From: a virus
DNA length: 35,336 bases
UHGV virus genome: UHGV-0373725
Direction: 5' to 3' (one strand)
The first letter of the stretch is position 1; the number at the start of each line of letters is the position of its first letter. The position numbers and the translations under genes are program-made. Below are positions 1-6,600 of the stretch, piece after piece. The notes below the pieces were generated by a model, which worked only from the letters and a program-made list of their open reading frames with translations, was not told the DNA's origin and made no database searches.

Positions 1-54
1 TTAAAATCCCTCGGCGTTCGCGCTGTGCGGGTTCAAGTCCCGCTCCGGGTACCA
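1..54 (+). tRNA. tRNA-Leu, 3' portion only (anticodon loop to CCA end); 5' part lies left of the window; probable phage attachment site
   Basis: Sequence reads anticodon loop (tTAAaa, UAA anticodon), long class II variable arm, T-arm GCGGGTTCAAGTCCCGC, acceptor TCCGGGT and ACCA end; integrase gene directly adjacent. Confidence 0.75.
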
Positions 55-96
55 TTGGGATAAAGCAGAATAATCAAAGCAATAAGCAGTGTCGTG

Positions 97-121
97 AAAC
101 CACCTACGGGTGGTTTTTTTG
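97..121 (+). terminator. Intrinsic terminator-like hairpin plus T-run downstream of the tRNA
   Basis: AAACCACC-tac-GGGTGGTTT stem-loop followed by TTTTTTT. Confidence 0.5.
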
Positions 122-184
122 TATCTGAAACTCTCCTTTCCGAAGATGCGTCCGAAGATGATTTTTCAACGAACGCATAGCGAT

Positions 185-1826: not shown

Positions 1827-2393
1827 TCAGCGCACCTGCAGCGAACGTTCGCCAATCTCAAGGTGAGCGCCCGGCACTGGGTTTAACAGTTCTTCCGGTA
1901 TCTCTCCGCCGTCAGCGGTAATCTGGGCCGCCGCTGCCTGTGCTGATTCAATCGCTTCCTTGATGGCTTTCTTGTCCGGAGTGACTAACGTCTGAACTGT
2001 CACTAATTCATCCGGCAGTAATTCATCATTATCGATCACGACGTTTATAGCTCCCTTACGTGCGGTAAAGGTATTTTTGGCGGTTTTAACCGTATCCTGA
2101 CCGGCGGCCAGTAGACACTGGAGAACATATTTCTTCAGGTTCGTGATCTTACCTTCGAATGATTTTTTGCGGGCGGCAAGGCGTTTGGCCTCTTCATCGC
2201 AGGTTTTTGCCAGGCCTTCCAGATTGCGAACGTGGACGAAAACGGCATCCAGTTTATCGCCGAGTTGTAACTCAAGACCTTCCATTGTGTCGGCGATCAT
2301 TTCAGGAGACAGACCAGCACCGTCTTCGTTTTCCAGTAGTGCCTGGAGTTTTGACATATCGGCTGCGATAGCAATTGCAGTGGTGGAAGTCAT
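1827..2393 (-). CDS. Siphovirus Gp157-family protein (recombination-module accessory protein)
   Basis: 188 aa, acidic helical N-terminus, family-like composition; ATGA start/stop overlap with the upstream annealing-protein gene, so co-transcribed. Confidence 0.55.
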   Translation of the reverse strand: MTSTTAIAIAADMSKLQALLENEDGAGLSPEMIADTMEGLELQLGDKLDAVFVHVRNLEGLAKTCDEEAKRLAARKKSFEGKITNLKKYVLQCLLAAGQDTVKTAKNTFTARKGAINVVIDNDELLPDELVTVQTLVTPDKKAIKEAIESAQAAAAQITADGGEIPEELLNPVPGAHLEIGERSLQVR

Positions 2394-4543
2394 TATGCTT
2401 TCTCCTCGGCTTTATTCAGTTCTTTAATGCGCCCATCTTTGATGGAGATGAGTCGGCGGAGCCGGCCAGACAGATAACGTTCATGCTGCGTGTCGCCGTT
2501 GGCCTGGGCGGCTTTAATGTGAACATCGATCTCACGTGCGATAGGGGAAAACACACCGTTGATTTCGTTCACCGTCACGCCATGCGCCAGGGTATTAGCA
2601 ACGCGGCTTAATTTATCGTCAAACTCCTGGCGGAGCCGTGCTGCATCTTCGGCTGATTCGCTGGCGTTCTTCAGGTCAAACTCGGCCTTGTTCTTCTGGC
2701 GGTACTCCAGATTGTCGTAAAGCCCCATAAAGATATCGCCACTGAATCCGAGGCCGGATAACGCTTTTTTGGTCGCATCTGTCAGTGATTTTTTGGCTGC
2801 TTCGCCGTCGCAGGTGATCCCGTATTTACTACCGTAAATGTAGGGTGTACAGCCGTATGCTGTTTCCTCACCTCGTACTCCGTTCAGGATGTACCAGAGC
2901 CGGACAGTCACAACATGGTGCTGTTCGTTGACGGTATTACCATTCCCATCAAGAACCAGCTCCCACGATGCGTTGTTGTCTTTGCCTTTTACCTGCCGAG
3001 TGATCGGCGCGCCAATATCGAAACGCTCTTCAACAATATCCACGCCCCAGCCGATGCCCTTAGGGCCAAACTCACGTGTGGCAAGCATGGTCATGTAGGT
3101 ACCGTTGATCGAGGTGCCACCGCCGTTCTGTGTGAAAGCCTTAGTAAACCTTTCGTCGGTTTTAAATACGCGTTTCCAGAGGTCTAAATTGTCTTCCCCG
3201 ATAATTGGTTTTCCGACAGCCTGCACAACATCCTCAGCGTTAGGCAGGCTTTCAGCGTGAGCGATTTGTTTTGCTAAACGCTCGGAATCATCAGCCAGTT
3301 TTTCAGCCTTAACGCTTAACTTCTCTTCCGGCTCTGCACCTTCACCAGAGGCATATACGCCATAACCCATATCATTGAGCGTCTCACGCGCCTGTTTGGC
3401 CTGAGTGTCGGTTACAACCGGCTGCTGCGCTTCCACTTTTTCGCCCACGTTTGAGGCGGTATTTTGCGTCGCCTCTGGTTGTTTAACGGATCCTGTCTCG
3501 GTTTCCTCAAAGCGACCGTTGGCCGCCAGCCATGAATCGATATGGCGGCGCAGGCTGTCAGGGAAATGGTAGGTATCTTTCGCCGGTACGTTTTGTACCA
3601 CGCCGAAGATGCTGGCACGGTCGTATTTGAGTATCTGCGGCGTGGTGTGCAGCGATGCTGACCAGCGTTTAAAATCTTCCCGGTCATCGGAAATCATCTT
3701 CTTAGCGTCCAGAAGGTTTCCGGATAGTACCGGCGCATCAGGCGCCAGCGGGAGAAGGGCGGTAGCGATCTCCTGATCCAGCGTTGCATAAGTGTGTTTA
3801 TACCCGCGCTTAGAAATTACCACGGGTGTTTTATCATCGGTGCTGGTGCTGAGAGCGGTATTTTTATATACGCCGGGGGCCAGTTCGTCGCGCTTGCCCG
3901 GATTCTCAAGCCAGCGTTTAACGAACTGAGAGATAGCCGCTTTGCCCGGCGTCTGGTTTTCAAAGTGGGAGAAAATACCCTGAATAAGATTGTTCAGACC
4001 TTCCACATGCATGCTTTGAACCGGGAAGTTATTTTGCAGGGCGCACAGAACATTAAAGTTAAAGCGATCTTCCTCTTCAAATTCCCCATCGTGGTTTTTC
4101 AGATTATCCAGATAATCCACAACCTGAGAATAAAGATGGCCATCAATCGCCGCGGTGCTAAAAAGCAGGACGGCAGCAAAGCGTTCATCAGGGGAAACGG
4201 TCATCAGGTCGATCACTTCATCGTCGGCTGGTAAACCTGCACCACTTCCGGAAGCGCTATCCTGCGCAGTAGAAACCCATTTTTCACCGTCAAAAGTATG
4301 CTGCTGGGCGAATGACTCATCGAACTGGCCAACGGTCGGCAGCGGCTGGCCTTCAACGTGTTCCCACAGTTTCGGTTTGAAATAGTTGTCACCATTGGCC
4401 GGGTATGATTCCCAGAGTTTGCCGGTCATAATGCTTTCGGCCACTTTTTTGTTTGGCGCATCGATGGCGATCGCCAGCTGCACGGCGCCGCAGTCTTTAA
4501 TCGCCGATTTCTTTGGCTCAAATGAGCCGTTGTAGATGGTCAT
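2393..4543 (-). CDS. Large (716 aa) protein with a C-terminal Rad52-like single-strand annealing domain and an uncharacterised ~450-aa N-terminal region
   Basis: Residues ~470-640 show the Rad52/Sak-type pattern (FGPKGIGWG, beta-hairpin VVTVRLWYILNG, AKKSLTDATKKALSGLGFSG compared with human Rad52 ARKEAVTDGLKRALRSFG). Start set at Met12, which sits in the conserved cassette (gaggaaagaccaATGACCATC). Confidence 0.6.
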   Translation of the reverse strand: MTIYNGSFEPKKSAIKDCGAVQLAIAIDAPNKKVAESIMTGKLWESYPANGDNYFKPKLWEHVEGQPLPTVGQFDESFAQQHTFDGEKWVSTAQDSASGSGAGLPADDEVIDLMTVSPDERFAAVLLFSTAAIDGHLYSQVVDYLDNLKNHDGEFEEEDRFNFNVLCALQNNFPVQSMHVEGLNNLIQGIFSHFENQTPGKAAISQFVKRWLENPGKRDELAPGVYKNTALSTSTDDKTPVVISKRGYKHTYATLDQEIATALLPLAPDAPVLSGNLLDAKKMISDDREDFKRWSASLHTTPQILKYDRASIFGVVQNVPAKDTYHFPDSLRRHIDSWLAANGRFEETETGSVKQPEATQNTASNVGEKVEAQQPVVTDTQAKQARETLNDMGYGVYASGEGAEPEEKLSVKAEKLADDSERLAKQIAHAESLPNAEDVVQAVGKPIIGEDNLDLWKRVFKTDERFTKAFTQNGGGTSINGTYMTMLATREFGPKGIGWGVDIVEERFDIGAPITRQVKGKDNNASWELVLDGNGNTVNEQHHVVTVRLWYILNGVRGEETAYGCTPYIYGSKYGITCDGEAAKKSLTDATKKALSGLGFSGDIFMGLYDNLEYRQKNKAEFDLKNASESAEDAARLRQEFDDKLSRVANTLAHGVTVNEINGVFSPIAREIDVHIKAAQANGDTQHERYLSGRLRRLISIKDGRIKELNKAEEKA

Positions 4544-4555
4544 TGGTCTTTCCTC
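4541..4555 (-). promoter_or_regulatory. Conserved translation-initiation cassette GAGGAAAGACCAATG at the annealing-protein gene, preceded by a GGCGC-gtgacct-GCGCC hairpin
   Basis: Read directly on the minus strand. Confidence 0.6.
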
Positions 4556-4587
4556 TTGGTTACTGGCGCAGGTCACGCGCCGGTTAA

Positions 4588-4911
4588 TTAAAACGGTACG
4601 TCGCTTTCTTCAATTGGAGAGTGATCGATGCACAGCAGCTGCTGAATCTGGTCTTCAATAACACCCAGCTCCTTCTTTGCTTCGGCAGAGATTTTCTCTT
4701 TCTTCGCACGAAGGGCATTAACCTGCATACCAATAATGTCGATTGGCTCTAAAGCTGGAATGGCAACCTCTACCGTTTTGGTAGTAACGAGGACATACAG
4801 ATCAGGGTATTGCTGTGACATGTCACAGGTGAATGAGTGATAAGACGTTGGTAGATATGGTTTGGTTGTGGCCATAACGTAAATAGTTACGGGGATGGTA
4901 AGCGCTTCCAT
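4588..4911 (-). CDS. Hypothetical early protein (107 aa) with an acidic C-terminal tail ending ...IEESDVPF
   Basis: Good Shine-Dalgarno (AAGGAGtcgctATG); first gene of the leftward early operon. Confidence 0.6.
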   Translation of the reverse strand: MEALTIPVTIYVMATTKPYLPTSYHSFTCDMSQQYPDLYVLVTTKTVEVAIPALEPIDIIGMQVNALRAKKEKISAEAKKELGVIEDQIQQLLCIDHSPIEESDVPF

Positions 4912-6153: not shown

Positions 6154-6600
6154 GTGGAATACCTCGAAGAACTTAAACGAGAGATCTTTAACTGGGCAGC
6201 GGAAAGCGGGCAGGAGCTGGTTGCTATCGAGATAAGCCGCATGTGGTTTCGTCTTGGTGGTAATACCGGTTCGCTGAAGCTGCACCAGATCGAAGATGCA
6301 GATGGAAACGCCGACTGGCGGGCAATCAACAACAACCGCCAACAAATTTTTCGTTGGTTGCGAGGCGAGACCAAAGCCGCGAGAGCCAAAACTCTGGCGC
6401 TGGTCAAAGCGATGGAAGCGGCGCTGCCGGCAGAACGTTACGCGCGCTTGGGTATGTCCACCCAGTATTTAATTTGTGTGGCCATTCGTGAGTTTGCCGC
6501 GGCGATTATCGCGTTATTACTCGACGCCAGAGACGGGCCGCAGCAAGTCGCCAGAGCATTGCAAGCTATGCGAGAAACACAGCGCCTGACCAGCGTTTAA
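6154..6600 (+). CDS. CII-like / YdaT-family regulator (tentative)
   Basis: 148 aa, GTG start with CAGGAG Shine-Dalgarno; position after the Cro-like gene and motif ...FRWLRGETK... recalled from YdaT-like proteins. Confidence 0.5.
   Translation: MEYLEELKREIFNWAAESGQELVAIEISRMWFRLGGNTGSLKLHQIEDADGNADWRAINNNRQQIFRWLRGETKAARAKTLALVKAMEAALPAERYARLGMSTQYLICVAIREFAAAIIALLLDARDGPQQVARALQAMRETQRLTSV

Follow-up and report, generated by a model that had tools for sequence, protein, structure and literature searches.

A Klebsiella prophage gene joins a RecE/YdfE-type N-terminal module to a predicted Rad52-like annealing domain

The virus genome UHGV-0373725, a stretch of 35,336 nucleotides that was analyzed at its full length and is referred to here as the window, is a Klebsiella prophage adjoining pgsA-uvrC. 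A single open reading frame of 716 codons occupies positions 2393-4543 on its minus strand, with the ATG at 4543. The encoded protein consists, in order, of a RecE/YdfE-type N-terminal module, a linker, a Rad52-like annealase, and a helical tail. It is very probably the strand-annealing protein of the prophage recombination (Rec) module, working without a phage nuclease and together with a Gp157-family partner, with its N terminus serving as an accessory region and not as a nuclease. Domain identities and homologies were established directly, as was the conservation of both the fusion and the gene pairing.

The C-terminal part was modeled with AlphaFold2 on a 51-sequence alignment, giving a mean predicted local distance difference test score (pLDDT) of 94.1. 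A Foldseek search of the PDB with this model returned the human RAD52 N-terminal domain as all of the top seven matches (E 1.5e-6 to 4.7e-6, probability 1.0), and the next match was at E 0.04. Among the predicted viral structures of BFVD the matches were phage proteins of 170-290 amino acids, several of which are named Rad52, Rad52/59/22, or single-strand annealing protein; Erf and Bet were lower in the list. A first-pass annotation of this DNA, made by a model from the sequence alone, had placed a Rad52-like annealing domain in this part of the protein, and the AlphaFold2 model and its RAD52 matches bear this out. On the basis of the modeled fold, residues 451-611 are assigned as a Rad52-type annealing domain, for which a strand-annealing activity is predicted.

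A search with residues 442-716 found ∼100 relatives, mostly free-standing proteins of 210-285 amino acids from Yersinia, Mixta, and metagenomes. The N termini of the free-standing relatives align exactly at the sequence NLDLW (motif NLxLW) at residue ∼451, and the 716-residue protein is about three times their size, in agreement with its initial description as unusually large. The invariant core of the annealase family comprises H, W, G-T, G, KS-TD, K, G, D, G, D, and Y. The family consensus EAPKKSLTDAxKKALSMLGFSADIFLGLYDD corresponds to the Rad52 signature helix. In all 51 sequences K, S, T, D, K, and G are unchanged within the stretch AKKSLTDATKKALSGLGF, residues 582-599 of the window protein; Lys-585, Ser-586, Thr-588, Asp-589, Lys-593, and Gly-599 are invariant in the free-standing family (Lys-584 additionally in A3). 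The helix matches positions 105-137 of the Pfam Rad52_Rad22 profile, to which 24 of the 51 family members gave weak matches (best E 1.4e-5), always at this helix. The tail that follows, with helices at 171-212, 217-240, and 244-274 in the numbering of the model, may bind a partner, in analogy to Red-beta's C-terminal domain, which binds lambda Exo (PMC11611040).

The N-terminal region is homologous to the N terminus of RecE. In an hhalign comparison of a profile of 13 N-terminal sequences with one of five RecE-type N termini (K-12 RecE, Gifsy-1, SP-016, a Klebsiella phage, and vB_EcoS-813R8), residues 9-343 aligned with RecE residues ∼11-354 (probability 99.6%, E 1.2e-23). The precomputed Pfam assignment PF27430 (YdfE_N) is found on the exact 716-residue protein and on all full-length homologues, and BLASTP gave E 2e-10 to K-12 YdfE, the product of a Qin-prophage pseudogene truncated by IS2. 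The NCBIfam exonuclease VIII model (PRK09709) matches residues 165-362 (model positions 176-381, E 4e-11), and PHROG families of RecE-like proteins match residues 233-392. In tblastn searches of phage genomes, residues 10-350 were found in the 823-residue "exodeoxyribonucleases" of mEp460, HannyBb, and PPompW and residues 154-473 in the RecE-like proteins of Gifsy-1 and FSL SP-016. The region had initially been described as lacking any recognizable motif, a description that these matches overturn.

Conserved blocks within the module lie at residues 1-90, 110-215, and 245-345 and are separated by low-complexity spacers. The module is acidic overall, with a net charge of −25, and has one basic subdomain at residues 245-345 (pI 9) that is common to all RecE-type and DEDD-type relatives. 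At window residues ∼219-240, the spacer in three relatives (L086, L089, and L090; L numbers designate the sequences compared) is expanded into (ST)n stretches with as many as about 20 repeats. The linker at residues 346-450 includes a conserved TLNxMGYGVYA motif.

The breadth of the N-terminal module was sampled from a phage collection and IMG/VR. Behind the same module lies an Rv2179c-like DEDD 3′-5′ exonuclease in mEp460 and 813R8 and a PD-(D/E)XK (DUF3799) domain in Gifsy-1 and in the Klebsiella RecE type, each of the latter with recT adjoining. Judged from these alignments, the module is a common fusion partner that occurs with three kinds of effector and not a unique extension of the window protein. 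The novelty that the first-pass annotation saw in the N-terminal region falls away, since as a fusion partner the module is both known and common. What this region does is unknown in RecE as well (PMC11611040).

A second feature of the linker is the near-invariant sequence RGE[YF]V[ED]GISDP[NT]DPKW, which was present in every RecE-type and DEDD-type relative examined (at residue 483 of L003, 414 of L004, and 463 of L010, K-12 RecE). It also occurs in several divergent alleles of the annealase fusion (e.g. L057, L070, L080, L081, L086, L089, and L090) and is absent from the window protein (3194-3508), BUCT708, and ZF40. It resembles a short linear interaction motif.

The fusion was followed in two sets of related viral contigs, 80 from IMG/VR retrieved with the N-terminal region and 80 retrieved with the C-terminal family. 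Both parts lay in one frame in 77 of the 80 N-terminal-retrieved contigs (708-760 amino acids), the frame being broken in the other three, and the protein was fused in 78/80 of the C-terminal-retrieved contigs, down to identities of 56% in the C-terminal part and 25-39% in the N-terminal part. More than 1000 homologue clusters of 708-725 amino acids, mostly from Klebsiella, are present in the databases, and the exact 716-residue sequence is indexed in 54 blocks of a public assembly collection (24 of the contigs that carry it were read). The fusion is thus genuine and old, and is neither a chance event nor an assembly artifact; the reading of the frame as one gene in the first-pass annotation is upheld.

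The two halves of the protein differ in their divergence. Against the window protein, L016 shows identities of 98% in the N-terminal region but 49% in the annealase, and L026 shows 82% and 97%, respectively. In L016, L020-L023, L038, and L085, an N-terminal module of 80-98% identity is joined to an annealase of only 49% identity (window 2396-3193), and Gp157 co-varies in most of these swapped prophages, with identities of about 71-74%, but stays at 96-98% in L023 and L085. These identities indicate separate histories for the two halves, with module swapping at a breakpoint in the linker. Where synonymous divergence was unsaturated, the ratio of nonsynonymous to synonymous substitution rates (dN/dS) was 0.08-0.19 in the N-terminal blocks, 0.11-0.34 in the linker, and 0.007-0.07 in the annealing core; the value of 0.56 for residues 1-100 of L016 comes from a near-identical comparison with negligible divergence. 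Because dN/dS is 0.08-0.19 in its conserved blocks, the N-terminal module is under purifying selection, which maintains it.

The early region of the prophage has 82% nucleotide identity with that of the Stenotrophomonas phages vB_SmeS_BUCT708 and vB_SmeS_BUCT709 (L001; OM816834.1 and OM816835.1). Their fusion protein is 81% identical to the window protein, which is unexpectedly close for the stated host.

The product of the gene directly downstream matches Pfam Sipho_Gp157 (PF05565) with 120.7 bits against a gathering cut-off of 28.6 (E 8e-35), confirming the coupling to a Gp157-family gene that had been proposed. An intact fusion with Gp157 directly after it was found in about 150 of the 160 related viral contigs. 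The Gp157 start lay between −6 and +12 nucleotides from the stop codon of the fusion gene in all but two of the 160 rows (one without a Gp157 match and one at +179 nucleotides), and in the N-terminal-retrieved set it was a few bases from the stop in all but one contig long enough to show it. In the window the stop and start codons share one nucleotide in the sequence TAATG, and not an ATGA overlap as originally read, with GAGGAG just upstream. Co-transcription of the two genes is plain, and their translation is probably coupled.

The pairing of annealase and Gp157 recurs in ZF40 and, with free-standing relatives of the annealase, in Pseudomonas phage AH02 and Vibrio phage D80; the gene neighboring the annealase relative of F116 gave a weak DUF1351 match. 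In a survey of Firmicutes single-strand annealing proteins (SSAPs), Gam, Gp157, DUF2483, and DUF1351 genes are interchangeable neighbors of erf and sak4 (PMC8093625). The Gp157 product is a putative DNA-end protection or anti-RecBCD partner, and phrog_253, to which it belongs, carries the label "Mu Gam-like end protection." A 436-residue product encoded upstream of the free-standing annealase in AH02 was considered as a split N-terminal module and rejected (hhalign probability 0.1%).

We infer the annealing activity, the role of Gp157, the source of single-stranded DNA (ssDNA), and the function of the N-terminal module from these relationships. By its family, the annealing domain would oligomerize and pair complementary strands without ATP, holding ssDNA in a basic groove that includes Lys-584, Lys-585, Lys-592, and Lys-593. 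The Rad52-like domain would coat and anneal ssDNA supplied by host nucleases or by replication forks, with Gp157 protecting ends or restraining RecBCD and the three-helix tail (residues 612-716) making a partner contact. The acidic, flexible linker would connect the annealase to the N-terminal module, which most likely keeps the role that it has in RecE, namely an accessory one of tethering or targeting, by which the enzyme joined to it would reach DNA ends or a host factor. The simplest reading of the operon is a Rec module of the "P22 functional type," made up of an annealase and an anti-RecBCD function without a nuclease. In a 2025 survey of 325 lambdoid phages (PMC12315714), 84 of the 246 Rec modules have no nuclease, the P22 type, with its anti-RecBCD function and annealase, by itself accounts for 46 phages, and MuGam-type proteins are counted as anti-RecBCD functions. 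Because nuclease-less Rec modules are common among the lambdoid phages of that survey, the absence of a phage nuclease needs no special explanation.

Several results weigh against this interpretation. The 716-residue protein scored 13.7 bits against Pfam Rad52_Rad22 (PF04098), below the cut-off of 20.3, and the Pfam scan gave no DUF1071 match; PDB sequence searches with the whole protein and with the C-terminal family profile returned nothing. TM-scores to RAD52 were moderate (about 0.5 on the target), owing to the long hairpin and the tail. The structure model of residues 1-449, built from a shallow alignment of close homologues, had a pLDDT below 50, and a cryptic catalytic site within residues 1-450 is formally conceivable. 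For the partner gene, hhalign comparison of a four-sequence Gp157 alignment with Mu Gam gave a probability of 0.6%, and the relationship of the two families rests on PHROG and literature labels. Of the profiles named in the first-pass annotation, Sipho_Gp157 was recovered, whereas Rad52_Rad22 and DUF1071 were not. Because the protein lies below the Pfam cut-off and lacks a DUF1071 match, we place it with the Rad52 SSAPs at the level of fold or superfamily only, outside the curated Pfam family.

A broader version of the accessory role is possible, and we put it forward tentatively. The RecE/YdfE N-terminal module would be a general targeting device of enterobacterial prophages that delivers any fused DNA-end enzyme to a common site (a DNA end, the replisome, or RecBCD/RecJ). 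In the window protein it would bring a host nuclease directly to the annealase and so take the place of the exonuclease-annealase contact of the Red and RecET systems. If true, this would account at once for the absence of a phage nuclease and for the long-unexplained way in which the RecE N terminus stimulates linear-linear recombination.

A role for the module in counter-defense or host manipulation, such as shielding the annealase from a recombinase-sensing defense or binding or inhibiting a host nuclease, is improbable, although it fits some of the observations above. The module is acidic, is shuffled independently of the annealase, and is attached to three unrelated effector domains, and phage SSAPs are targeted by defense systems and satellites (PMC11846896). 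However, we found no homology to known anti-defense proteins, and the selection acting on the module is purifying and not obviously diversifying. Full-length RecE is better than its nuclease domain at linear-linear recombination (PMC11611040), and this enhancement by the N terminus points instead to a role in recombination.

Much less likely still is the suggestion of the first-pass annotation that the N-terminal region supplies a 5′-3′ exonuclease, which would make the protein a single-chain exonuclease-annealase. Pfam and PHROG scans did not find a 5′-3′ exonuclease gene in the leftward operon, as the annotation had stated, or in the early right operon; the family is labeled "exonuclease" in databases; and the low-confidence model of residues 1-449 leaves room for a catalytic site. 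The label nevertheless derives from homology with the non-nuclease part of RecE. The 716-residue protein matched no nuclease families in Pfam, NCBIfam, or PDB profiles, and the PDB search with the N-terminal family profile was empty. In RecE, residues 564-866 alone carry the nuclease and recombination functions, and this nuclease domain genetically substitutes for the whole protein (PMC11611040). The frequency of nuclease-less modules in the lambdoid survey also counts against the proposal. Because a distinct C-terminal nuclease domain is present in its other hosts, the N-terminal module is very unlikely to be the missing nuclease.

That the database annotation is correct and the protein is a RecE-like exonuclease VIII is scarcely credible and is already refuted at the domain level. 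PHROG 2489/7838 are labeled "exonuclease," NCBI uses names such as "exonuclease family protein" and "putative exodeoxyribonuclease VIII," and PRK09709 matches in part. However, the PRK09709 match reaches 41.6 bits, where the cut-off is 1269, and is confined to the N-terminal region, upstream of the RecE nuclease domain. In Pfam the 716-residue protein has no match to PF06630 (Exonuc_VIII) and none to a PD-(D/E)XK/DUF3799 or DEDD domain, its C terminus folds as Rad52, and its operon contains no recT, the downstream neighbor being Gp157. Finally, a merger of two genes by sequencing or assembly error, for which the free-standing existence of the C-terminal domain and the three broken frames might be cited, has a negligible probability and is already refuted by the population data, the fused frame being kept at 25-39% N-terminal identity and in ZF40, with no Met or ribosome-binding site at the domain boundary.

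As a nuclease-less annealase the window protein can be compared with several known systems. Rad52/Sak-type SSAPs (the human RAD52 N-terminal domain, yeast Mgm101, lactococcal ul36 Sak, and staphylococcal 80alpha Sak/DUF1071) include free-standing relatives of the window annealase of the usual 210-285 amino acids. In the window protein, by contrast, the annealing domain is C-terminal, lies behind a 450-residue extension, is too diverged for the Rad52_Rad22 cut-off or DUF1071, and has an unusually long β-hairpin/sheet and the three-helix tail. RecE of the Rac and Gifsy prophages is homologous over the N-terminal ∼345 residues and has a like position in an early-left operon near xis and int. However, the window protein has an annealase where RecE has the PD-(D/E)XK nuclease, has no recT partner, and lacks the RGE[YF]V[ED]GISDPxDPKW linker motif.

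The closest N-terminal relatives are the YdfE/mEp460-type "exodeoxyribonucleases" (Qin, CP-933P, and HannyBb), with 28% identity over residues 10-386 (E 3e-27, BLASTP with mEp460). They share YdfE_N and their gene adjoins xis-int, but they end in an Rv2179c-like DEDD 3′-5′ exonuclease and have no Gp157 neighbor, unlike the window gene. The catalytic part of the common ∼820-residue "exodeoxyribonuclease VIII" encoded next to xis-int in E. coli prophages (L003, L005, L007, and L009: mEp460, 813R8, HannyBb, and PPompW) is not RecE-like. Proteins of this type have the Rv2179c-like DEDD end without a RecT neighbor, and K-12 ydfE is an IS2-truncated remnant of one.

Pectobacterium phage ZF40 encodes a full-length homologue, gp07 (35% identity over 99% of the length), which is annotated "exonuclease," and gp06 is its own downstream Gp157 gene. 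In the lambdoid survey, ZF40 is the sole Rec module with an anti-RecBCD function only and without an annealase, and "RecE-2" proteins without a nuclease domain are listed with no roles assigned (PMC12315714). We infer that the RecE-2 proteins include the window fusion family. The Rec module of P22 (Erf plus Abc2) is, in the same survey, of like functional composition, with an annealase and a protein that counters RecBCD or protects ends, but no phage exonuclease (PMC12315714). The families differ, being a Rad52-like fusion and Gp157 in the window and Erf and Abc2 in P22, and the window module has no equivalent of Arf or Abc1.

All parts of the window system are of known kinds (a Rad52/Sak-type SSAP, a RecE/YdfE N-terminal region, and Gp157), and they do not constitute a new mechanism. 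The fusion is abundant in databases under the labels "exonuclease," "exodeoxyribonuclease VIII," and "hypothetical," and we found no paper that describes it as an annealase. What is new is the reassignment of function and the recognition of the RecE N terminus as a portable module that comes with cargo of three kinds. By fold, thousands of "exonuclease" and "exodeoxyribonuclease VIII" genes without a nuclease domain in Klebsiella, Salmonella, and Pectobacterium prophages would be corrected to annealases. The reassignment also supplies an annealase for the class of lambdoid Rec module in which ZF40 stood alone in the survey (PMC12315714). The function of the RecE N terminus has been a long-standing question since the dissection of RecE and matters for RecET direct cloning, and with no nuclease in cis, the annealase fusion offers a naturally occurring construct in which to examine it. 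The fusion and Gp157 together are a compact two-gene candidate for Klebsiella recombineering.

Table 1. Features of the 716-residue fusion gene and its immediate neighbors (window coordinates).
Feature	Position	Strand	Basis or remarks
Whole gene, 716-residue chimera	2393..4543	-	phrog_2489 full-length match; homologues; population contigs
RecE/YdfE-type N-terminal module (PF27430 YdfE_N), residues 1-345	3509..4543	-	homology searches
Most widely conserved core of N-terminal module, residues 245-345	3509..3811	-	YKHTYATLDQEIA...DREDFKRWS...LKYDR..IFGV
Acidic variable linker, residues 346-450	3194..3508	-	low-confidence model; recombination joint of N- and C-terminal modules
Predicted Rad52/Sak-type single-strand annealing domain, residues 451-611	2711..3193	-	β-hairpin, helix, extended three-stranded sheet, signature helix
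Signature helix AKKSLTDATKKALSGLGFS, residues 582-600	2744..2800	-	corresponds to RAD52 inner ssDNA-groove helix
C-terminal three-helix tail, residues 612-716	2396..2710	-	kept in free-standing homologues
Stop codon of 716-residue gene	2393-2395	-	
Shine-Dalgarno-like AAGAGGA	4551..4557	-	7 nucleotides 5′ of ATG 4543; read directly
Gp157-family gene, 188 residues	1827..2393	-	PF05565, phrog_253
107-residue gene, phrog_2479	4588..4911	-	upstream of fusion gene; no Pfam match

The ATG at 4543 was taken as the start of the fusion gene because it is preceded by the AAGAGGA ribosome-binding site and homologues begin MTIYNG, matching this codon. On the same grounds an in-frame GTG upstream at 4576, which would give a protein of 727 residues, is an improbable start. 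An internal start producing a free annealase was also rejected; the domain boundary has no Met, and the conserved Met-391 lies in a protein motif and is Leu in ZF40.

In the order of transcription, the leftward operon encodes a CI-like repressor, the 107-residue protein, the 716-residue protein, Gp157, two small open reading frames, a DUF4224 excisionase, and the integrase. The early right operon encodes a CII-like protein, a replication initiator, a DnaB-like helicase, a methyltransferase, and HNH proteins. The fusion gene has the 107-residue gene upstream of it in 79 of 80 related contigs; across contigs the identity of the 107-residue gene ranges from 45% to 99% and varies independently of the neighboring gene. 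Its product was considered as the counterpart of ZF40 gp09, also of 107 residues, and this was ruled out, since comparison of the two showed no similarity.

Naming conflicts between libraries affect two regulatory genes. The gene at window 6154-6600 (plus strand) is a CII-like activator by PHROG name and has a precomputed Pfam match to YdaT_toxin, and the Cro-like gene has a weak YdaS match. Window 1-132 is 91-92% identical to the ends of several E. coli phage and prophage records; ARAGORN gave no tRNA there, and the segment is possibly an attachment site or flanking sequence next to pgsA. The window contains four Chi octamers (GCTGGTGG), all on the plus strand (12806, 16294, 22132, and 34296) and none on the minus strand, compared with ∼1.1 expected; four were reached in 3 of 100 shuffles. 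These sites may be relevant to the use of RecBCD by a nuclease-less Rec module (compare the lambdoid survey, PMC12315714).

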